Assembly: GCA_965203355.1 (NCBI GenBank)
Contig: OZ241889.1
Span: 1,504,001-1,568,000, forward strand
Reading direction: 5' to 3'
Origin: Candidatus Latescibacterota bacterium
GTDB taxonomy: Bacteria; Latescibacterota; UBA2968; UBA8231
DNA: 64,000 nucleotides
Under the pieces are notes generated by a model. It saw only the letters and a program-made list of their open reading frames with translations, had not been told where the DNA came from and searched no databases. Made by a program: the position numbers and the translations under genes. Shown piece by piece: positions 13,824 through 23,688 of this stretch. Position 1 is the first letter of the stretch. Every line of letters begins with the position of its first letter.

Positions 13824-14657
13824 CTAGCCCCGCGACGGCTCGGGCATCTCGGCCCGCGCCTTTGCCGCTAGGTCTTTGAGATGGCCGTCGTTGGCCAGGC
13901 GCTGCTCGAGATGTACCATACGGCGTTTGCTCGCCGTGGCGATCATGGTCTCGCCGTACGCGTGCTCCGCCCAGAAGCGGGCCAGCCCAGCGATGTCTTG
14001 TTTGACGAGATCGATCTGATCCTCGGGTACGCGCACCATGCAGTTGATGGTGAACATGCGGCGGCGGCCACCACCGCCGAAGGCTGCGTGTTTGAGGTTG
14101 TGCTGAAAGACGACGACGTCTCCGGGGACGACCTCCAAAGCGACAGCCGGGACTTGGTCGCCGGAGAGGCCCCACTGGGCCTGCGAGCACCGTGCGTTCG
14201 CTTCGAGCGTCTCGGCGTACTGATCGCCTCGGCGGTGGCTGCCCGGGATCACGCGCAGGCAGCCGGTGTCGCGGGTCAGGCGGTCGAGGTAGAAGGCGAT
14301 TTTGACATGGCGCACTTCCTTCTGATAACCGTCAGAGTGCCACTCGGTATCACCGGCGTAGTAGTTGCCGTCGGAACCGCTGTAGTTGAAGTCGTCGCCG
14401 AGCAGACTGGCCAGCAAGCCCTCGATGCGCGGGTCGTCGAGCAGCGCGCATAGGCGCTCGTGTTGATCGATGAAAGGCACGATGCAGGAGCGCCGTTGGC
14501 CGTCGTGCGGTTGGCCGTGGTGGCCGCCGCCGCGCTCGGCCCAGACCTGCTCAAAGGCGTCGATGATTTCGTCGATGCAGTCGGCCATCAGCCCCGGCAG
14601 CGCGAGGTAGCCGAAGGCGTCGAAAAAGTTGAGTTGCTGTTGGTTGAGGCGAATCAT
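13824..14657 (-). CDS. Phytanoyl-CoA dioxygenase (PhyH) family Fe(II)/2-OG oxygenase
   Basis: Start MIRLNQQQ with AGGGAG RBS; FDAFGYL, WHSD, GCLRVIPGSH, GDVVVF..H motifs. Confidence 0.88.
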   Translation of the reverse strand: MIRLNQQQLNFFDAFGYLALPGLMADCIDEIIDAFEQVWAERGGGHHGQPHDGQRRSCIVPFIDQHERLCALLDDPRIEGLLASLLGDDFNYSGSDGNYYAGDTEWHSDGYQKEVRHVKIAFYLDRLTRDTGCLRVIPGSHRRGDQYAETLEANARCSQAQWGLSGDQVPAVALEVVPGDVVVFQHNLKHAAFGGGGRRRMFTINCMVRVPEDQIDLVKQDIAGLARFWAEHAYGETMIATASKRRMVHLEQRLANDGHLKDLAAKARAEMPEPSRG

Positions 14658-14788
14658 GGCGGTCTCCCTGAGTGCTTGACGGAGGGTGGGGAAGGCGATA
14701 CATTGGCGGCGTTTTAGACGCCGTGGCGAATCTAATGAAGTGCCTATCTTCATTCAATGTTTGATACCGACAGCCGTAGAAGGCCGCG

Positions 14789-15211
14789 ATGAAAATTGTC
14801 GATGTGGGTGCCGTGCTGCTGCAACCCATGCCGTGGGTGCTGGTGAAGGTGCGCACGGATGAGGGTATTACCGGCCTGGGCGAAGCCTATCACGGGGCCG
14901 GCGTCCACCACATCGCCGTTGATGAACGCCTCACCCAACGCGCCCTCATCGGTCAAGACCCGCGCAACGTCGATAAGCTCTTCCGCGACATGAAAAGTTC
15001 GATGTCGGCGTCGGGGTACTATCAAGGGGCGGTGATGAGCGCGATCAGCGGCCTTGAGATGGCGCTGTGGAACAGCCTCGCGGTGGAGCGCGACCTGATC
15101 GTCAACGGGCGGATCGCCTTGCCGCAGGCTCCCGGGCTCGGCGTTGCACTTGACGAGGAGGTCGCGCGTAGCGCGGTGCGCGAAGACCTCGGCTTCTCCG
15201 CGGCGGAGTAG
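14789..15211 (+). pseudogene. Mandelate racemase/muconate lactonizing enzyme family gene with in-frame internal deletion of the catalytic barrel
   Basis: The N-terminal domain (VKVRTDEGITGLGE...AISGLEMALW) is joined directly to the family C-terminal tail (NGRIALPQAPGLGVALDE). Only 140 aa. Confidence 0.8.
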
Positions 15212-15218
15212 AGCCGAC

Positions 15219-16220
15219 TTGTCGCTTAACTACGCATTTCGCCGCTTGGGCGTGTTCCTGCTGATCGTGTGGGCCGGGGCTACCATTAACTTCTTGATGC
15301 CTCGGCTGGCTCCGGTAAACCCCATCCGCGAGCGTCTGTTGCAGGCGGTTTCCTTTGGCGGTGCCGGCAAGACCGACATGGAGGCCGTGGTGGCCACGTA
15401 CGAGGCTCGCTTCGGGCTTGACCAGCCCCTGTGGAAGCAGTACCTGCGCTATCTCGGGGACGTGGTGCGCCTCGACTTTGGGGTTTCCATCGCCAATTTT
15501 CCGAGCCGCGCTTCCGACATTATCATGCGTGCGCTGCCGTGGACGCTTGGGCTGCTGACGACGGCGACGCTGATTGCCTTTGCTCTTGGCACGGTGCTCG
15601 GTGCGCTGCTGGCTTGGCCGCGAACGCCCGGTGCCCTGCACTACTTTGCCGCGCCTTTCTTGGCGCTGTCGGCGATTCCTTATTACTTGCTTGGACTGGT
15701 GCTCGTCTTTCTCCTAGGTTTCACCTTGCGTGCCTTTCCCCTCGGCGGCGGCTTTACCTTGGGAACGCTGCCTGGGCCGACCTGGGCCTTTGCCCTGGAC
15801 GTAATTTATCACTCCATCGTCCCCGCCCTGTCGATCGTGTTGTCGTCGGTGGGGTTTTGGGCTTTGTCGATGCGCGGTATGATGGTCACTGTCCAAGGCG
15901 AGGACTACGTCAACTACGCCGAAGCCCGGGGATTGAAGAGCCGCGACATCTTCTTCCGCTACGCCTTGCGCAACGCCCTATTGCCGCAGACTACGGCCTT
16001 GGCGCTGGCCATGGGGTACGTGGTGTCTGGGGCTGTGCTGGTGGAGGTGGTATTTGCGTATCCGGGCGTGGGCACGGTGCTGTACCGAGCCGTGCAGACT
16101 TTTGATTACTTCGTCATCTACGGCGTCGTGATCATGGTCATTTTGGCTATCGCCGTAGTGACCTTGATCCTCGATTTGGTTTACCCGCTCCTCGATCCGC
16201 GCATTGCCTACCGCCGATGA
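15219..16220 (+). CDS. Peptide/nickel ABC transporter permease (DppB/OppB-like)
   Basis: TTG start; FGLDQPLWKQY, EDYVNYAEARG (EAA loop), LDPRI terminus. Confidence 0.9.
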   Translation: MSLNYAFRRLGVFLLIVWAGATINFLMPRLAPVNPIRERLLQAVSFGGAGKTDMEAVVATYEARFGLDQPLWKQYLRYLGDVVRLDFGVSIANFPSRASDIIMRALPWTLGLLTTATLIAFALGTVLGALLAWPRTPGALHYFAAPFLALSAIPYYLLGLVLVFLLGFTLRAFPLGGGFTLGTLPGPTWAFALDVIYHSIVPALSIVLSSVGFWALSMRGMMVTVQGEDYVNYAEARGLKSRDIFFRYALRNALLPQTTALALAMGYVVSGAVLVEVVFAYPGVGTVLYRAVQTFDYFVIYGVVIMVILAIAVVTLILDLVYPLLDPRIAYRR

Positions 16221-16225
16221 CGCTC
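16193..16225 (+). repeat. 33-bp direct repeat, left copy (dppB 3' end)
   Basis: CGATCCGCGCATTGCCTACCGCCGATGACGCTC, identical to 17661-17693. Confidence 0.95.
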
Positions 16226-16252
16226 TTGCTCCGATATTGCCGGTAATACTAT

Positions 16253-16281
16253 TTGCCAATTGTGTCTTGAACTGGTAATCT
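16253..16281 (+). promoter_or_regulatory. Putative sigma70 promoter of the inserted ATPase
   Basis: TTGCCA-17 nt-TAATCT with an extended -10 TG, in the AT-rich spacer. Confidence 0.4.
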
Positions 16282-16332
16282 TTTTGTCCGGTTTAATGTA
16301 GAGTCGGGAACAAAACTGACTGACATTGCATT

Positions 16333-17688
16333 ATGACGGCTGCGCTCAAGGAAATCATTCTAGACTTTCAGGAAGAGTCGCTGGAGACCGGTGTCCCGCG
16401 GCGGGTCTCGGTGAGTGCGGTGCCGGGAAAGGCCATGGTCTGCATCGGCCCGCGACGAAGTGGAAAATCCACTTTTCTGTTTCAACTCATCCGCAAGCTA
16501 CTTGACGCTGGAATACCTCGCGACAACATCCTGTACCTGAACTTCTTCGACGACCGCCTGCGTTATCTGCAACGCGATGGGCTGTCCGCCGTGATGGAGG
16601 CATACTATTCGCTTTATCCCAAAAAAAAGAACACCCAGACGGTCCATTGCTTCTTCGACGAGATTCAGGTCGTGCCCGGTTGGGAGTCTTTTGTGGACCG
16701 GATCATGCGCACCGAGCAGTGCGAGGTGTACATGACCGGCTCGTCGGCGCAGATGTTGTCTCAGGAGATCGCGACACAGATGCGCGGACGGCCCCTTTCT
16801 TGGGAATTGTTTCCCTTCTCGTTTCGCGAGTTTCTCGACTTCAAGGGGATCGACAGTAGCGGCCCCTTGTCCGCCCGGCGACGCCTGCTGATCCAGAGCG
16901 CATTCGATCAGTACTGGGAGAGCGGCGGATTTCCCGAGGTCGCGGGTTTTGACCGCCGGCTGCGGATCAAAACTCACCAAGAGTACTGGGGCGCGATGCT
17001 GTTCCGCGACCTTGTTGAACGACACGACATCTCCCACCCCCGAGCAGTCTCTGATCTGGCTCACTGGCTGGTGGACAACATTGCTTCCCTGTACTCTGTC
17101 AACCGGCTCACTGGATACTTGAAGGCACTCGGCTATCGCGCCCCCAAGTCGGCGGTCTCCGCCTACCTGAACTGGTTTGAGGATGCCTTCTTCTTGTTCA
17201 CGGTGCGCATCTGCGACGCATCCTTGGCGCGGGCCAACGCGAACCCCAAGAAGATCTACTGCGTCGATCACGCACTGGTCGAATCGGTCTCCTCCGGCAT
17301 CCTCGTGAACACCGGCCATTTACTCGAAAATCTCGTGTTCACGGCGCTCCGTCGAGTTACGCCTGAGCTTTTCTACTACAAGTCGAAGGCCGGTCGCGAA
17401 GTGGATTTCGTCGCTTACATGGGCGACGGTGTGCGCCTATTGGTCCAAGTCTGCGAGTCCCTTGCAGACCCGCAGACCAAGCAACGGGAAGTGGCCGCAC
17501 TTCGCGATGCCATGGGCGAACTAAATTTGGGAACGAGTGTGCTCGTAACTCGTGGTGGAGCGGGCGGTCCCAGCGACGGGGAACACATTGTCGTTGACAC
17601 CGGCGAGATCGAAGTCACCGCTGCTTGGCGTTTTCTGCTCGATGTGGATTCCGCCTACGGCGATCCGCGCATTGCCTACCGCCGATGA
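16333..17688 (+). CDS. AAA_14/DUF4143 ATP-binding protein (inserted cassette)
   Basis: Walker A GPRRSGKST, Walker B FFDEIQ, TGSS, GGFPE, KIYCVD..LLENLV..EVDFV. The C-terminus DPRIAYRR is copied from dppB. Confidence 0.9.
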   Translation: MTAALKEIILDFQEESLETGVPRRVSVSAVPGKAMVCIGPRRSGKSTFLFQLIRKLLDAGIPRDNILYLNFFDDRLRYLQRDGLSAVMEAYYSLYPKKKNTQTVHCFFDEIQVVPGWESFVDRIMRTEQCEVYMTGSSAQMLSQEIATQMRGRPLSWELFPFSFREFLDFKGIDSSGPLSARRRLLIQSAFDQYWESGGFPEVAGFDRRLRIKTHQEYWGAMLFRDLVERHDISHPRAVSDLAHWLVDNIASLYSVNRLTGYLKALGYRAPKSAVSAYLNWFEDAFFLFTVRICDASLARANANPKKIYCVDHALVESVSSGILVNTGHLLENLVFTALRRVTPELFYYKSKAGREVDFVAYMGDGVRLLVQVCESLADPQTKQREVAALRDAMGELNLGTSVLVTRGGAGGPSDGEHIVVDTGEIEVTAAWRFLLDVDSAYGDPRIAYRR

Positions 17689-17693
17689 CGCTC
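17661..17693 (+). repeat. 33-bp direct repeat, right copy
   Basis: Identical to 16193-16225; contains the ATGA stop/start overlap. Confidence 0.95.
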
Positions 17694-18542
17694 GCTCCGC
17701 TCGTCTCGGCAACACGCCGCCATCCCCAGCTTACGGCCGGCTTAATCGTCGTCTTTGTCGTGCTTGCTTTTGGTCCGGTAGGGGCCCTGTTCGTCGATGC
17801 GGATTTGGCCCGCGTTGGTGCGGCTGAGCCGAATCGGTCGCCGTCGCTGGAGCATTTGCTCGGTACTGACGCGGCCGGCCGGGATTTGCTCGCGGTGATG
17901 GTGGCGGGTACGCCGCTCACGCTCAGAGTTGGCTTCCTCGCTGGTGCCGTTGGTCTCGGCATCGGCATCATCCTCGGCTTTCTCGCTGGGTACTTCGGCG
18001 GCTTGGTGGACACCTTGATTCGGGGAGCTGCCGATGTGCTGCTGACTGTGCCCGGCCTGCTGTTCCTCGTGGTGCTGGCCACTTCGCTGCGCACGGCTGT
18101 TACCGTTGATATGATGGCTCTCGTGGTGGCCTCGCTGGCGTGGATGCTGCCGACGCGCACGATCCGCTCGCAGGTGCTGTCGCTGCGCGAGCGCGCCTAT
18201 GTGCAGGTGGCCCGGCTCTCCGGCATGAAGGACCTCGAAATCATCGCCCGCGAGCTGCTGCCGAATCTGCTACCCTACCTAGCGGCTAGTTTTGTCAGTG
18301 CCGTGGGGGCTGCGGTGCTGGCTTCGATCGGTTTAGAGGCGCTGGGCTTGGGGCCGCAGAACGAGCCTACGCTTGGGATGACCATTTACTGGGCTTTGTA
18401 CTACACTTCGCTGCTGCGGGGAATGTGGTGGTGGTGGGCACCGCCGATTGTGATGATCGTGCTGATTTTTCTCGGCTTGTTCCTCATCTCCATGGGATTG
18501 GACCGCATCGCCAATCCGCGTATATGGAAGGTCTCGTCGTGA
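17685..18542 (+). CDS. Peptide ABC transporter permease (DppC/OppC-like)
   Basis: HLLGTDAAGRD, ERAYVQVARLSG, LEALGLG and WWWWAPP motifs. Confidence 0.9.
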   Translation: MTLAPLVSATRRHPQLTAGLIVVFVVLAFGPVGALFVDADLARVGAAEPNRSPSLEHLLGTDAAGRDLLAVMVAGTPLTLRVGFLAGAVGLGIGIILGFLAGYFGGLVDTLIRGAADVLLTVPGLLFLVVLATSLRTAVTVDMMALVVASLAWMLPTRTIRSQVLSLRERAYVQVARLSGMKDLEIIARELLPNLLPYLAASFVSAVGAAVLASIGLEALGLGPQNEPTLGMTIYWALYYTSLLRGMWWWWAPPIVMIVLIFLGLFLISMGLDRIANPRIWKVSS

Positions 18543-19522
18543 ACGCCGAGCGCAAAGGCCGCGTGGTGCTGCGGGTGCAGGATCTGCGCGTTCACTACCA
18601 CACTCCGAGGGGACCGGTGCGTGCCGTAGAGGGCGTTGGCTTTGCGTTGCGGGCCGGGGAGCGGCTGGGCTTGGTGGGCGAGTCGGGCTCGGGCAAATCG
18701 ACGACGGCCCTGGCCCTGATCCGGCTGATCCGGCCACCTGGGCGGATCGAAGGGGGACAGGTCGAGCTCGACGAGTTGGAGTTGTTGTCGCTGTCTGAGG
18801 AGGAGATGCGGCGCGTGCGTTTTTCGCGCATCTCGCTGATTCCCCAAGGCGTGATGAACTCGCTCAATCCGGTGATGCGGGTGGGGGCGCAGATCGCCGA
18901 TACGATTGAGGCGCACGAGGAGCGGCTCGACCGCGAGACCCTGCAGGAGCGCGTAAAAAGCCTGTTGGCGCTGGTCGAGCTGGACCCGGCGACCGCGCGC
19001 ATGTACCCCCACGAACTCAGCGGCGGCATGAAACAGCGCGTGGGCATGGCCATGGCCGTGGCCTTGCGGCCTCAGGTGATCATCGCCGACGAGCCAACTA
19101 GTGCCCTAGACGTGGTCGTGCAGAAGCGGGTGATGGACACCTTGTTCCGCGTGCAGCAGGAACTCGCCGCTGCGGTGGTTTTGGTGGGCCACGACATGGG
19201 GCTGATGGCGCAGTGTGTGGATCGCATCGGCGTGATGTACGCTGGCCGATTGGCCGAACTGGGGCCGGTGCAGAGTCTGCTTGAAGAGCCGCTGCATCCG
19301 TACACGCGCCTGCTGGTAGAAAGCCTGCCGTCGCTGGAGCGCAAGGGCGTGTTTCGCGGCATCCCCGGGCTGCCGCCTTCATTGCTTGAGCCGCCGCTAG
19401 GATGTCCCTTCCACCCGCGCTGTCCGCAGGTGATGGACCGCTGCTTGGAGCGCGCACCGGAACTGGAGGAAGTGGTTGCCGAGCGCCGGGCGGCTTGTCA
19501 CCTGCACGCCGAGGTCTCGTGA
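18539..19522 (+). CDS. Peptide ABC transporter ATP-binding protein (DppD-like)
   Basis: GESGSGKST, YPHELSGGMKQR, IIADEPT, HPYT and GCPFHPRC motifs. Confidence 0.92.
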   Translation: MNAERKGRVVLRVQDLRVHYHTPRGPVRAVEGVGFALRAGERLGLVGESGSGKSTTALALIRLIRPPGRIEGGQVELDELELLSLSEEEMRRVRFSRISLIPQGVMNSLNPVMRVGAQIADTIEAHEERLDRETLQERVKSLLALVELDPATARMYPHELSGGMKQRVGMAMAVALRPQVIIADEPTSALDVVVQKRVMDTLFRVQQELAAAVVLVGHDMGLMAQCVDRIGVMYAGRLAELGPVQSLLEEPLHPYTRLLVESLPSLERKGVFRGIPGLPPSLLEPPLGCPFHPRCPQVMDRCLERAPELEEVVAERRAACHLHAEVS

Positions 19523-20577
19523 GTACTCCACTGTTAGAAGCGCGGGGCGCGCGCCGAGCCTTTGGCGGCGGCGTGTTCGATCGGCAGCGGGTCGTCGCGG
19601 TCGCCAACGCCTCGCTGGTGATCCCGGCGGACGATCCGGTGGTGGTGGCCATCGCCGGCGAGAGCGGCAGCGGCAAGACCACCTTGGCGCGCTTGCTGCT
19701 GGGGATTCTACCCCCGACTGGCGGATCCGTGCGCTACCGGGGCGCGGAATTGCGCGATCTCGACGCCAAGACGCGCCAGACCTTTCGCCGGCAGGTACAG
19801 GCCGTGTTTCAGGATCCCTTTGAGGTGTTCAACCCGTTCTACCGAGTGGACCATTCCCTGACGGTGCCGATTGCCAAGTTTTTCCCGCAACTGTCGCGCA
19901 CCGAGCGGCGGCGGCGGATCGAGGAGGGGCTGCAAGCGGTCGGCCTGCGCCCAGAGGAGACGCTTGGGCGTTATCCCCATCAGTTAAGCGGCGGTCAGCG
20001 CCAGCGCATCATGGTGGCGCGGGCCTTATTGCTCAACCCGCGCGTGATCGTGGCCGACGAGCCGGTGTCGATGGTAGATGCCTCGTTGCGCGCTACCATC
20101 TTGGAGACCTTGTCTCGCATTCATCGGGAGCGCGGCATTAGTCTGGTGTATATTACGCACGACCTGACTACGGCGTACCAACTGAGTCACACCATTCTCG
20201 TCATGTACCAAGGGGCGGTGGTCGAGGTGGGCGGTGTGGAGCAGGTCATCAAGGCACCCAATCACCCTTACACGCAGCTACTGGTGAGTTCCATCCCGCT
20301 GCCGGATGCAAAGCGCCGCTGGGGCGAAGGCTCGGTTGATGTCGCCCCTAGCAGGGTGGAAGAGTCGCCGATGGCCGAAGAAGGCGCAGAGATTCCGCGC
20401 CCTACTGGCGGTTGCGCCTTTGCTGAACGCTGCTCCCACGTCATGCCGCGCTGTCTCCAGCAGCGTCCACCGTTGGTGCAGACCGATGCTGGCCGTGCTG
20501 CGGCCTGTTATCTCTACGAGGACGCGGCCGTGCTGTCGGAAGAGCAGGTCGCTGGTTTGTCCTACGGAGGAGGGTGA
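19519..20577 (+). CDS. Peptide ABC transporter ATP-binding protein (DppF-like)
   Basis: GESGSGKTT, YPHQLSGGQRQR, VADEPVS, HPYT and GCAFAERC motifs. Confidence 0.92.
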   Translation: MSTPLLEARGARRAFGGGVFDRQRVVAVANASLVIPADDPVVVAIAGESGSGKTTLARLLLGILPPTGGSVRYRGAELRDLDAKTRQTFRRQVQAVFQDPFEVFNPFYRVDHSLTVPIAKFFPQLSRTERRRRIEEGLQAVGLRPEETLGRYPHQLSGGQRQRIMVARALLLNPRVIVADEPVSMVDASLRATILETLSRIHRERGISLVYITHDLTTAYQLSHTILVMYQGAVVEVGGVEQVIKAPNHPYTQLLVSSIPLPDAKRRWGEGSVDVAPSRVEESPMAEEGAEIPRPTGGCAFAERCSHVMPRCLQQRPPLVQTDAGRAAACYLYEDAAVLSEEQVAGLSYGGG

Positions 20578-20956
20578 ACGCGGGGGATGGACAGGGGATG
20601 AACCCAATTTTGTGCCGGGTGGGTCTATGGAAGAGTTTGTGGCAAACGGTACGCTCGATGCGGAATATGCACAGATCTTTCGCATCGAGAACCCAACCGC
20701 TGGTGTTGCCCTTTTCGCGCACCTATACCCGCTAGACCGCGCTGAGCGCATCCTTCCCGGCCCTCAAACGCAACGAGATGCAGGAGTTCAACGCTACGTC
20801 CTCTGCGCCCGGCCGGTCGCCCCTACTCTATCCATCTCTGTACCCTTTCCGTTACACGCTCCGTCCCTCACAGCCCGCGGCCCCTCTGAGCCGCTGTCTT
20901 GGCACGATTTTTGCCTCTTGCCGGTGCCACCGCACCCGCAACCCAAGGCATCGCTC

Positions 20957-21892
20957 ATGGCCGAATTCGATACCATCGCCAAACACCTCATCCACACCTA
21001 TCCCCGAGACTTCGCCCGCTTCGCCCTCCAACAAGACGACCTCGAAGTCCTCGACATCCTCGACACCGAACAACCCACCGTTGAAGCCCACCGCACCGAC
21101 AGCCTCATCCGCGTGCGCGTCCACGACGAGGAGGCCCTCATCCATCACGAATTTCAAACCACCGACAGCAACCCCCCCATGCCGCAGCGCATGGCCGGTT
21201 ACATCGGCCGCAGCATCGAACAGCACGGCCTGCCCATCTATGCCAACGTCATCTATCTGCGGCCCGACGCCGGCCGGCGCGACCCGGGGTATTATCTCCA
21301 AGAGCGGCGCGGCTTCCGCGTGTTGGTGCAATACCAAGTGATTCGGCTGAGTGAGCTAGACGGCCAACAGACGCTCGATGCGGGGGATGCGGGTTTGCTT
21401 CCGTTTGCGCCGTTGATGCAGCGGCCGACGGGTGTGGATGCGGCAGCATGGCTGCGCCGGTGTGTGAATCGGGCGCAACAGATGCCCATGGCCGCGCTCG
21501 CCAAGGCCGATTATCTGGTCCATCTTGCGATTTTGAGCGGATTGGTGTATAAATCAGAAACGATTATGACCATCATCTCGGAGGCGACCATGTACGAATC
21601 GTCGGTAGTGCAGTATTTCACGGAAAAGGCGCTTGAGCAAGGCATCGAGCAAGGCGTTGAGCAAGGCATTGAGCAAGGCATTGAGCAAGGCATTGAGCAA
21701 GGTGGCCGAGAACGCGCGATTGAATACCTGCTCGACGTGCTGGCGCTTCGCTTTGGGCTGGCCGCGTCGGCTCCATTGGCCGTCCGCTTAGGGGCTATTG
21801 ACGATGTGCAGCACCTCAAGCAGTTGCATCGAGCGGCCATACAGGTGCCCAGTCTCGAAGCCTTTAGGCACTTGCTAGACGGCCTCGAGTAA
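20957..21892 (+). CDS. Rpn/YhgA-like (PD-(D/E)XK) putative nuclease
   Basis: MAEFDTIAK...RTDSL...HHEFQT..MPQRM; (EQGI)n repeat; C-terminal LALRFG...LKQLHRAA. The ORF-track start at 20306 is an unlikely extension. Confidence 0.8.
   Translation: MAEFDTIAKHLIHTYPRDFARFALQQDDLEVLDILDTEQPTVEAHRTDSLIRVRVHDEEALIHHEFQTTDSNPPMPQRMAGYIGRSIEQHGLPIYANVIYLRPDAGRRDPGYYLQERRGFRVLVQYQVIRLSELDGQQTLDAGDAGLLPFAPLMQRPTGVDAAAWLRRCVNRAQQMPMAALAKADYLVHLAILSGLVYKSETIMTIISEATMYESSVVQYFTEKALEQGIEQGVEQGIEQGIEQGIEQGGRERAIEYLLDVLALRFGLAASAPLAVRLGAIDDVQHLKQLHRAAIQVPSLEAFRHLLDGLE
21635..21703 (+). repeat. 12-bp tandem repeat GAGCAAGGCATT (~6 copies) encoding EQGI
   Basis: Seen directly in the sequence; typical of Rpn-family C-termini. 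Confidence 0.9.
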
Positions 21893-21894
21893 AG

Positions 21895-23688
21895 GTGCTG
21901 CACAACGTCCAGACGACCGGCCGGTCGCCACTATATGCCATTTTCGCGGCGTGGGCCGTTTTGGTTAGCTGCGGGCCGACCGTGGTGCTGGACGATGTTC
22001 CGCGGGACCGCACCCTGATCTTGATGAACGGCGGGCCGAACCAGTATTCTCTGTTCGACAATCAGAACCCCTACATTCCCGGCTCCGATCAAGGGTTCCA
22101 CATGGGTACGCTGCCGGCGGTGTTCGAGCCGCTGATTATGTACAATGTGCTCACCGGGGAATACGAAAATTGGCTGGCGGAGAGTTGGGCGTACGACGAC
22201 AGCTTTACCGTGCTCACCGTGAAAATTCGCGCGGGCATTGAATGGGCAGACGGCATCCCCTTCACGACACGCGATGTGGCCTTCACATTCGACCTGCTGC
22301 GCGATCACGCCGAGTCCATGGTGCATCTGGCCGACCTGCCCGAGTTTTTTGACTCCACCGAGGTCGTTGATGACCACACCGTGCGGCTGGTGCTAAAAAA
22401 GGCGGGGCCGGTGTTTTGGGCGACTACGCTGAGCAGCAATCACGGCATCTTCGTCTTGCCCGAGCATATCTGGAAAGATCGGGATCCACTAGCGTTCACT
22501 TTCCACGACATGGACGGTGGCTTGCCCTTGGGCACCGGTCCCTACCGCCTCGTGTACGCTTCGCCGCACCAGAAAATCTACGATTTGCGCGAGGACTGGT
22601 GGGCGGCTAAGGCGGGCTTCAAGCGCCTGCCGCGAATCGAGCGAATCATCTACGTGCCGCAGCAGGAGGAGAGTCAGGCCGCGCAGTTGCTGCTGACGGA
22701 TCAGCTCGACATGGCACCCATCATGCAGGTGCTCACCCTCGAAAGCGTGTTAGAGCGCAATGCGCGGGTGGTGACTTTTGCTGATCGGCAGCCACCCTAC
22801 GGCTATTTGGACTGGTGTCCGATTGACCTCAACGTGAACTGCTCGGAGCCGCCTTTTGACGATCCGCAGATTCGCCGGGCGATTAGCATGGCCATCGACC
22901 GGGAAAAGCTCGTCCAGTTGGCTGAGTCGGGTGCGGGCGTGGTCGCGCTGCATCCTTTTACGCCCTACGAATGGTTCGCGCCTTTTGACGAGGCTCTGCA
23001 AGAGATTCTCGCCCGGCACGGGTACGACGCCAAGCCGCACTTGGAAGAAGTCAATCGGATCATGGAGGGGAAAGGCTATGGCAAGGACGAGGAGGGTTTG
23101 TGGGTCAACGCGGAGGGCGCGCGCGTCGAGATCGCCCTGTACGTGCCGCAGTGGCTACGGGCTTACGGTCCACCGCTGACGCAACAGCTACGCGACGCTG
23201 GTTTTGATGCGAACTTCGACACCTCGCCCGGCCTGACTTCTCTCGTGCAGACGGGAGAGCAAAAGGCTTCTCTCGGCTGCAAGGGCCCCAGCGGCGTACG
23301 CGGCATGGACCCCTATCTGATGCTGTCTTACTACACCTCGCAGTACTTCCGCCCCACCGGGCAGCCGGCCCCGCTGTGGTCGACCATCTCGCGCTGGCGC
23401 AACGAGGAGTTCGACCGCCTTGTCGAGCGCATCGCGCCTCTACGGGTCGGCGACGAGGAACTATTGAAGTTGTTTAGCGCGGCCATGGAAATATGGGTGG
23501 GAGAGCTGCCCGACATCTTCTTGGCCCAGCTCATCATTCGCTATCCTTGCAACACCACGCACTGGACCGGCTGGCCGAGTCAGCAAGACCCTTACGGCTT
23601 TCCGCATTCTTGGCAGTGGGAGTTGTTGAAGACCTTCATCCGACTGGAGCCTGTCGCGCCCTTGTCGATCAGCCCGCGAGGAGAGTAA
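21895..23688 (+). CDS. ABC transporter substrate-binding lipoprotein (family 5)
   Basis: Lipobox LVSC; WADGIPFTTRDVAFTF, LGTGPY and PFDDPQIRRAISMAIDR motifs. Confidence 0.9.
   Translation: MLHNVQTTGRSPLYAIFAAWAVLVSCGPTVVLDDVPRDRTLILMNGGPNQYSLFDNQNPYIPGSDQGFHMGTLPAVFEPLIMYNVLTGEYENWLAESWAYDDSFTVLTVKIRAGIEWADGIPFTTRDVAFTFDLLRDHAESMVHLADLPEFFDSTEVVDDHTVRLVLKKAGPVFWATTLSSNHGIFVLPEHIWKDRDPLAFTFHDMDGGLPLGTGPYRLVYASPHQKIYDLREDWWAAKAGFKRLPRIERIIYVPQQEESQAAQLLLTDQLDMAPIMQVLTLESVLERNARVVTFADRQPPYGYLDWCPIDLNVNCSEPPFDDPQIRRAISMAIDREKLVQLAESGAGVVALHPFTPYEWFAPFDEALQEILARHGYDAKPHLEEVNRIMEGKGYGKDEEGLWVNAEGARVEIALYVPQWLRAYGPPLTQQLRDAGFDANFDTSPGLTSLVQTGEQKASLGCKGPSGVRGMDPYLMLSYYTSQYFRPTGQPAPLWSTISRWRNEEFDRLVERIAPLRVGDEELLKLFSAAMEIWVGELPDIFLAQLIIRYPCNTTHWTGWPSQQDPYGFPHSWQWELLKTFIRLEPVAPLSISPRGE

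Follow-up and report, generated by a model that had tools for sequence, protein, structure and literature searches.

The window examined here is a stretch of 64,000 nucleotides (nt) from a Candidatus Latescibacterota bacterium (GCA_965203355.1, contig OZ241889.1, positions 1,504,001 to 1,568,000). Within a transporter operon in this window, a segment of 1.47 kb that carries a gene for an AAA_14/DUF4143 ATPase separates two permease genes of the ATP-binding cassette (ABC) type, dppB and dppC, and the segment lies between the two copies of a 33-nt direct repeat (Table 1). To judge from their sequences, the permeases are PepT-type (Opp/Dpp/Nik) proteins, and "dppB" and "dppC" serve only as labels: the NCBIfam DppB model scores 123 bits vs. 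a cut-off of 590, the DppC model 94 vs. 483, and the best NCBIfam matches are likewise below cut-off (Opp2B, 174 vs. 350; Opp4C, 175 vs. 350). DppB is 97% identical in amino acid (aa) sequence to its relatives over the full length, with a ratio of nonsynonymous to synonymous substitution rates (dN/dS) of 0.03–0.04, and DppC is 91–95% identical, with a dN/dS of 0.07–0.14.

An earlier note, made from the letters of the window alone, had described an exact 33-bp duplication at this locus, an ATPase open reading frame (ORF) that has no stop codon of its own and reads into the right copy to end in DPRIAYRR like DppB, and a stop codon that overlaps the dppC ATG. All three descriptions were borne out. 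The repeat search returned the 33-nt pair, which is the longest common string in the repeat comparisons and lies beyond all 200 shuffles of positions 15000–19000 (longest exact direct repeat: mean 11.8, maximum 15); the shared ending can be read directly from the ORFs; and the TGA that ends at 17688 lies within an ATGA whose ATG, at 17685, starts dppC. The dppB TGA overlaps a vestigial copy of the dppC ATG at 16217 in the same arrangement. The exact repeat is part of an ungapped 56-nt pair (16170–16225 and 17638–17693, 84% identical), all nine mismatches of which fall in the first 23 nt.

Table 1. Features at the dppB/dppC junction, in window coordinates. G001, G007, and G019 are related genomes described in the text; S1, S2, and S3 are palindromic sites.
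Feature	Position	Strand	Remarks
dppB-like ABC permease gene (PepT/Opp-Dpp-Nik type)	15219 (TTG)..16220	+	333 aa, ends DPRIAYRR before the stop; BPD_transp_1, E 7.5e-32
Left repeat copy	16193..16225	+	last 8 dppB codons, ATGA overlap, first dppC codons; matches the uninterrupted junction of 14 relatives
Decayed continuation of left copy (vestigial dppC 5' end)	16226..16239	+	judged against the empty sites and the left-hand junctions in G001, G019, and G007
Cassette leader	16240..16332	+	63 leaders aligned; conserved across phyla; three phased palindromes, -35/-10-like pair
Site S1	16241..16258	+	0 mismatches to the motif; right half is the -35-like TTGCCA, 16253–16258
Site S2	16273..16290	+	1 mismatch; holds the -10-like TAATCT, 16276–16281, 17 nt past TTGCCA
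Site S3	16305..16322	+	2 mismatches; degenerate right half
AAA_14/DUF4143 ATPase gene (PADLOC PDC-S01)	16333..17688	+	451 aa; Pfam and PADLOC matches
ATPase, family-conserved core to WRFLLD	ends 17643	+	
ATPase, lineage tail VDSAYG	17644–17661	+	
ATPase, DppB-derived tail DPRIAYRR	17662–17685	+	then TGA overlapping the dppC ATG
Right repeat copy	17661..17693	+	exact copy; upstream of and into the dppC start
dppC-like ABC permease gene	17685 (ATG)..18542	+	285 aa; BPD_transp_1, E 3.7e-24

The same arrangement was found in data obtained independently of the window. Contigs from the sequencing runs of other studies (X4 and X6) reproduce the cassette and the junction overlaps; in runs X1 and X4, a 1,495-nt unitig spans from inside the left copy to inside the right copy, and the X6 counterpart covers the same span with an internal deletion. 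These contigs are k = 31 unitigs that are broken at the 33-bp repeat, which hides single molecules across the whole junction as well as excision products. The architecture is not an assembly artefact, because it recurs in the independent assemblies of the relatives G001, G007, and G019 and in the X4 and X6 contigs.

The ATPase combines an AAA_14 domain (PF13173, E 4.5e-34, residues 33–168) with a DUF4143 domain located C-terminal to it (PF13635, E 5.4e-15, residues 225–374), and it matches the PADLOC profile of the defence candidate PDC-S01 (PDLC04787, E 3.6e-98) with residues 34–437 aligned to profile positions 29–408 of 412; a search of the NCBIfam profiles returned no model for it. The G, K, S, T, D, and E residues of the Walker A motif (GPRRSGKST) and the Walker B-like motif (HCFFDEIQ) are invariant in 40 aligned homologues. 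In the C-terminal domain, E-V-D-F and L-L-V-Q-V-C-E-S are conserved in all 13 inspected homologues, and the C of Q-V-C occupies what we take to be the position of K in the canonical PD-(D/E)XK motif. The gene is under purifying selection (dN/dS 0.15–0.17). An AlphaFold2 model of the protein has a mean predicted local distance difference test (pLDDT) score of 63, with residues 201–328 below 50 and block means of 70–94 for residues 331–400, so that confidence in the C-terminal domain is moderate to high. Foldseek with this model retrieved only generic AAA+ folds (ORC, DnaA, and archaeal SSO1545) at template modeling scores of 0.2–0.3, and a PDB sequence search with the protein gave only P-loop-level matches (E of at least 0.017).

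The end of the ATPase is borrowed from dppB. The C-termini were compared in the best 120 of 4,993 homologues with E <= 0.001 among 8,000 scored candidates: 106 of these 120 end otherwise, 3–22 residues past the conserved WRFLL motif, and the tail-bearers are the closest ones. Among the best 120, a DppB-like tail occurs only in the 14 closest proteins, the window's own included, in variants such as DPPMDYRR, DPPMAYCR, and the shortened CPTAYRR; two of the 14 were shown to lie at the same dpp locus. The comparison had been suggested in the earlier note, and a homologue at an unrelated locus that natively ends in DPRIAYRR did not turn up among the best 120. The borrowed tail is predicted to be an unstructured appendage, because in the model everything after the last helix (residues 431–437) is coil of low confidence, with block-mean pLDDT values of 52 for residues 441–450 and 46 for residue 451.

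In the strain of run X6 (~97% identical), 5 letters replace the ATPase stretch 16627–17056, a net loss of 423 nt that stays in frame; this deletion removes the Walker B region, and both junction repeats are retained.

The closest species-representative genome found with the ATPase, G001 (locus L001), is also a Candidatus Latescibacterota genome. A search of 40 relatives of G001 with DppC returned 20 loci, and in 14 of them dppB runs directly into dppC; these junctions show the same ATGA overlap and an almost identical 33-nt stretch. Such contiguous pairs had been named in the earlier note as one thing to look for, and the 14 uninterrupted junctions agree with its placement of an insertion at the dppB/dppC ATGA overlap. 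A low-depth contig of a diverged relative, from the sequencing runs, joins 16226 directly to 17695 and represents a further empty site. Read against these junctions, the ATPase segment is a true insertion.

The remaining loci record several fates of the insert. G007 (L097) has a full ATPase gene directly before dppC, and G019 (L096) has dppB, then ATPase remnants in different frames (residues 1–139 and 400–440), then dppC. In G005 (L094), the stop of dppB and the start of dppC are 58 nt apart, and the scar between them is composed of the left copy and a decayed right copy. Of the three loci left, two belong to more distant orthologues, which have a short spacer, and the third to a paralogue. 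G001 itself keeps the ATPase, its tail, and its leader next to an intact upstream enolase-superfamily gene; there, dppB has been cut to about 150 nt and dppC to dppF have been deleted. A metagenome scan with the ATPase found nothing closer than 73% identity and no further insert-bearing members of the clade.

At the G007 locus (L097/L103), 12 nt are missing from the left copy, the dppB stop codon among them, and DppB there ends in ...DPRIAYRAHPYR. The G007 ATPase has also lost its ATG start, and its frame (444 aa) stays open from a TTG that lies three codons before aligned residue 2.

The original duplication seems to have been longer than the present exact repeat. The left copy is identical to the empty site through ATG+13 in G001, and G019 has one mismatch among those 13 nt; the duplication would therefore have covered at least about 36–37 bp, and possibly about 47 bp. 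When the left copy of the window is compared with the window's own dppC, a 2-nt indel is followed by six further matching nt. A vestigial ORF of nine codons runs from the ATG at 16217 to a TAA at 16244–16246, inside the palindromic site S1; it is probably a by-product, because its ATG is CTG in G001.

The insertion is as old as the radiation of the species group and not fresh, as the exact repeat had suggested. Between the window and G001, synonymous divergence (dS) is 0.179 for the ATPase vs. 0.175 for the neighboring phyH gene, and between the window and G007 it is 0.427 for the ATPase vs. 0.443 for dppB, 0.455 for dppC, and 0.455 for phyH. The dS of the ATPase thus equals that of its neighbors, and the cassette has therefore co-diverged with the locus since their common ancestor.

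We found 264 relatives of the ATPase in species-representative genomes. The 80 loci kept for comparison are 56–94% identical to it (60 of them 68–75%) and span records of Gammaproteobacteria, Vicinamibacterales, Desulfobulbus, Levilinea, Prolixibacteraceae, Chlorobiaceae, Planctomycetota, Spirochaetes, Clostridia, and one archaeon, Syntrophoarchaeum. In blastn comparisons between loci, 35 of the 40 best rows share only the stretch from 0–112 nt before the start codon to the stop codon; by this measure, the family travels as a sharply bounded unit of about 1.4 kb that consists of a leader of roughly 100 nt and the ORF. Each of six genomes searched has one copy of the ATPase subfamily. In other genomes, 108 neighbor ORFs were chosen and 85 of them scanned; among the latter are type I methylases, AbiEii, TacA, PIN, ParE, Mrr, ResIII helicases, a CRISPR-associated protein, another AAA_14-DUF4143 gene, and housekeeping genes, and one of the 85 is a transposase-type (rve) protein.

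PDC-S01, an ATPase fused to a PD-(D/E)XK domain, is described in the accessible text of PMC12988326 as the fourth most common defence candidate, awaiting validation. In the accessible part of bioRxiv 10.1101/2024.09.26.614923, a PDC-S01 representative was challenged with T7, T5, and T4, and the four candidates reported as protective do not include it. DUF4143/COG1373 appears in the available portion of PMC3424549 among PD-(D/E)XK families of unknown function.

Sequence identity between the left and right flanks was determined at 55 loci. More than 9 nt was seen at no more than two of them, the window (33 nt) and its sister L001 (10 nt), and mismatched pairs, which served as the null, reach at most 11 nt in 432 comparisons. 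A flanking duplication as a hallmark of the whole family was rejected, the maximum of 9 nt at the 53 other loci being within the null range. The only other long flanking repeat among 75 loci is found at L055 (Pelodictyon luteolum), where a 126-nt exact direct repeat lies ~477 nt before and 261 nt after the ATPase; L043 and L061 have shorter repeats, of 19 and 17 nt, respectively. Four loci from Desulfobulbus, Desulfovibrionales, Levilinea, and Prolixibacteraceae (L006, L007, L008, and L010) share 2.2–2.75 kb at ~98% nt identity, a stretch (about 3747–6501 in L007) that includes the ATPase, a hairpin upstream of the leader, and a terminase-like ORF; such identity between phyla over this length implies very recent transfer on a larger unit. 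A comparison of the L005 flanks with 31 related genomes returned a conserved 1.6-kb gene, a multi-copy element, and ATPase copies elsewhere, and no interpretable empty site.

The cassette leader is AT-rich, with a GC fraction of 0.47–0.48 in 200-nt windows over 16100–16399 vs. 0.58–0.70 in the dpp genes. The 63 aligned leaders share a conserved TTGCC plus two further palindromic sites, and the underlying 18-nt palindromic motif, YGGNAANNNNNNTTNCCR, has at least one site in 56 of 61 loci and two or three in 38. In the window, the starts of S1, S2, and S3 are spaced exactly 32 nt apart. The available portions of the literature on DUF4143, PDC-S01, and COG1373 contain no description of a three-site leader, and an Rfam scan of 14000–23000 matched no family.

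We favor the view, at a probability of roughly 0.7, that a horizontally acquired 1.4-kb single-gene PDC-S01 cassette entered the translationally coupled dppB/dppC junction in a single ancient event and duplicated that junction. The insertion would have occurred in an ancestor of the species group, exactly at the junction, and would have duplicated at least 33 bp of it and probably 36–47 bp, the left copy retaining the last eight codons of dppB with their stop and the right copy retaining the sequence before the dppC start. The cassette would have come in frame with the right copy and lacking a stop codon that could be used, which is why the ATPase now ends in DPRIAYRR and terminates on the TGA of the ATGA overlap. 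Nothing found points to enzyme-driven integration: the 1.47 kb hold no transposase or integrase, the only ORF with a family match is the ATPase, dpp genes lie on both sides, the repeat search found no inverted-repeat pair at the cassette ends, and the 53 other loci have no flanking duplication above chance. The simplest account of the integration is illegitimate recombination or repair that left a staggered duplication and survived as non-disruptive.

Under this view, the TTGCCA/TAATCT pair of the cassette would act as its own promoter. The three phased palindromes, which overlap the -35 and -10 elements, may be operators that control it, and the ATPase may be the protein that binds them. Transcripts begun at the operon promoter or at the cassette promoter would run on into dppCDF, because no stop-plus-terminator intervenes; a scan of 15000–19000 found seven terminator-like sites vs. 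4.8 +/- 2.5 expected, none of them between the ATPase and dppC. Ribosomes that finish the ATPase may re-initiate at dppC, as those leaving dppB once did; the insertion would then be non-polar, and its long tolerance would be explained. Non-polarity and translational coupling between ATPase and dppC, both proposed in the earlier note, are plausible on the sequence, and three lineages have long kept dppC to dppF intact behind the insert, which agrees with non-polarity. The flanking repeats would also permit exact loss, restoring the original junction without a scar, and a patchy distribution could thus have arisen from exact loss or from sorting or recombination of an old presence/absence polymorphism.

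Several observations weigh against this view or parts of it. The main tree (dppB plus dppC–F, 20 rows, 3,836 columns) has G005, G007, and G019 branching first and places the window inside a 15-row clade (100/99) of otherwise empty-site genomes, beside the empty G008 (97/98). Forcing the four insert-bearing rows together costs 61 log-likelihood units (approximately unbiased test, p-AU 0.00036), a value that applies to a group named after the tree had been seen. Internal branches of the main tree are short; the shorter flank trees are poorly resolved and group the window with its sister G001 (100/99) and never with G005, G007, or G019. Since the insert-bearers do not form one clade, a single old insertion needs at least three exact losses, sorting or allelic recombination, or regain through the repeat. 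In G005, G007, and G019, the right copy is either decayed or truncated. Over a comparable time, neutral drift would not be expected to leave the two copies in the window without a single difference, and some additional process is required; in G001, repeat identity is perfect over 23 nt. Candidate explanations of this perfection are gene conversion, re-integration via the core, and constraint on the region where dppC is initiated; under the single old insertion, it would reflect gene conversion or constraint.

The expression part of the argument meets objections of its own. Promoter use, read-through, and coupling are all things we infer from the letters. G005, with its 58-nt spacer, and G019, with a frame-broken ATPase, keep an open dppC at 93–94% identity, and coupling is thus not indispensable for dppC, given that G005 retains it intact behind such a spacer. 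The candidate promoter that the earlier note had placed in the AT-rich leader stands in part: a conserved leader with TTGCCA and TAATCT 17 nt apart (16253–16281) does lie near the transcription start proposed there, but a scan of 15000–19000 for consensus sigma-70 promoters finds 0 sites, and the -10-like TAATCT matches TATAAT at only three of six positions. The ~109-fold enrichment of the palindromic motif in leaders (105 matches in 6,283 leader positions vs. 71 in 464,246 positions elsewhere) contains an element of circularity, since these leaders are also the source of the motif.

An alternative account treats the cassette plus one junction copy as a recombinase-free integrative unit that is excised as a circle via the repeats and re-enters empty junctions, as a circle or a linear fragment, by host homologous recombination, so that the lineage of the window and G001 would have regained the insert after a loss. 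We consider it unlikely, but it accommodates the nesting of the window among empty-site genomes while the earliest-branching lineages hold the insert or its remains. The perfect identity over 33 bp with an abrupt drop on both outer sides is what a crossover in the core would produce, and the near invariance of this core in the 14 empty-site relatives would suit a landing site. In-situ gene conversion, however, gives the same abrupt identity. Seven of eight diagnostic sites in the window's dppB and dppC–F are of the type of the empty-site (crown) clade, including sites ~200 nt upstream and ~300 nt downstream of the insert, and no donor tract is visible. The dS of the ATPase relative to G007 equals that of the flanks, as plain vertical descent predicts, and no circle or excision junction was seen in the k = 31 unitigs, where the 33-bp repeat would hide them.

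A slightly less probable alternative concerns the extent of the duplication. It holds that at least 56 bp, from 16170/17638, were duplicated by illegitimate recombination at a CTCGAT microhomology (ATPase LLD and dppB ILD) and that the VDSAYG stretch is a diverged copy of the dppB LVYPLL codons. The two 56-nt stretches do align in register without a gap, 14 of the 23 nt that precede the exact part being matched, and the interval from CTCGAT to GATCCG has the same length, 18 nt, in each copy. Nine mismatches in 17 nt beside zero in 33 are nevertheless hard to obtain by drift in one duplicate. Moreover, CTCGAT belongs to the family-wide WRFLLD codons, and the endings DLDRSG and DLDRRG of some more distant homologues resemble D-V-D-x-x-x-G, a hint that VDSAYG belongs to the cassette itself, as its tail or 3' flank. 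Because of the family-wide codons and of homologues ending in DLDRSG, 16193/17661 appears the likelier left edge of the duplication.

Recent insertion by an active mobile element, through transposition with target-site duplication or through site-specific integration, is very improbable. Perfect 33-bp direct repeats around a compact foreign gene of lower GC content would fit it, as would a family that crosses phyla and includes the four loci with near-identical 2.2–2.75-kb stretches. Against it stand the presence of the same insert and tail in G001 and G007 at a dS of 0.18 and 0.43, matching the flanks, the lack of a transposase, an integrase, and an inverted-repeat pair in 1.47 kb, the lack of above-chance flanking repeats at any of the 53 other loci, and the single subfamily copy per genome with 1 of 85 neighbor ORFs of transposase type. 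A chimeric join or collapsed repeat has next to no probability: short-read unitigs do break at both repeat copies, but the same gene order stands in the independent G001, G007, and G019, where non-identical repeats cannot mislead an assembler, and unitigs run from the left to the right copy in X1 and X4 and, with the internal deletion, in X6.

A bolder proposal, which we regard as a distinctly improbable conjecture, is that the PDC-S01-type cassette is a minimal self-contained mobile gene whose product, of ATPase/nuclease fold, binds the three phased leader palindromes and promotes movement or capture of the cassette; at the dpp junction, the duplication would make it reversible, so that it could be gained and lost exactly and without a recombinase. 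If true, this would explain why the shared unit extends from the first palindrome to the stop codon, why no recombinase travels with it, and how it landed inside an operon.

Other changes have affected the same operon. Upstream of dppB, the enolase-superfamily (MR_MLE) gene at 14789–15211 has lost ~705 bp internally relative to all 12 relatives compared; the deletion junction lies at 15064–15070, and an open 140-aa remnant with pieces of the N- and C-terminal domains is left. A second insertion, at 20580–21944, lies between the dppF stop (20577) and the signal-peptide region of a solute-binding-protein gene (21895–23688). It contains an ORF of 311 aa (20957–21892) with a weak, below-cut-off match to the Rpn-family recombination-promoting nuclease/putative transposase (E 5.7e-6) and short tandem units of the GAGCAAGGC type at about 21640–21700. 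G001 has three or four diverged tandem copies. The junction of dppF and the solute-binding-protein gene holds other inserts in G007 (1,956 bp) and G022 (891 bp), and a palindrome resembling repetitive extragenic palindromic (REP) elements in G002 and G011.

The locus offers a natural example of a horizontally acquired gene that is tolerated in an operon. The duplication of the junction spares the end of the upstream gene and the start context of the downstream gene, and it gives the newcomer a stop codon and a putative coupling site. The series of relatives, from empty site through intact insert, loss of host genes, and broken insert to scar, records long-term outcomes. In addition, a very common, unvalidated defence candidate moves as a sharply bounded 1.4-kb unit, the conserved leader sites and putative promoter of which are handles for tests of regulation and mobility.

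The ATPase resembles PDC-S01 systems in its full-length profile match, its Pfam domains, and its occurrence as a single, widely transferred gene, and its relatives in other genomes often have restriction-modification, toxin-antitoxin, Abi, CRISPR-associated, and other conflict genes as neighbors. It differs from them in that the cassette lies in a transporter operon and not in a defence island, and in its C-terminal extension, which comes from a membrane permease; the role in defence is a candidate one. Target-site duplications of bacterial transposons, which usually measure a few to about 15 bp, likewise place direct repeats of the target around a discrete foreign segment. The repeat described here is far longer, though, and goes with no transposase or terminal inverted repeats, with no duplication at the 53 other family loci, and with a single-copy subfamily.

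Integrative islands at tRNA and tmRNA genes rebuild the 3' end of their target by means of attL/attR core repeats. The insert is similar in that a duplicated core preserves the 3' end of the target gene, leaves direct repeats, and would allow exact excision; in contrast to such islands, no integrase lies between the repeats, the target is a junction of protein-coding genes, and the duplicate is translated as the tail of the newcomer and provides its stop. Overlapping stop and start codons (ATGA) in operons are associated with translational coupling, and the ATPase–dppC overlap, with the 23 nt upstream of it, is identical to the dppB–dppC overlap of the 14 relatives. What sets this putative coupling apart from the usual ATGA case is that the upstream partner has been exchanged for an unrelated, horizontally acquired gene. 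The case thus brings together a PDC-S01 gene and an insertion with target duplication, both of known kinds, in an unusually instructive setting.

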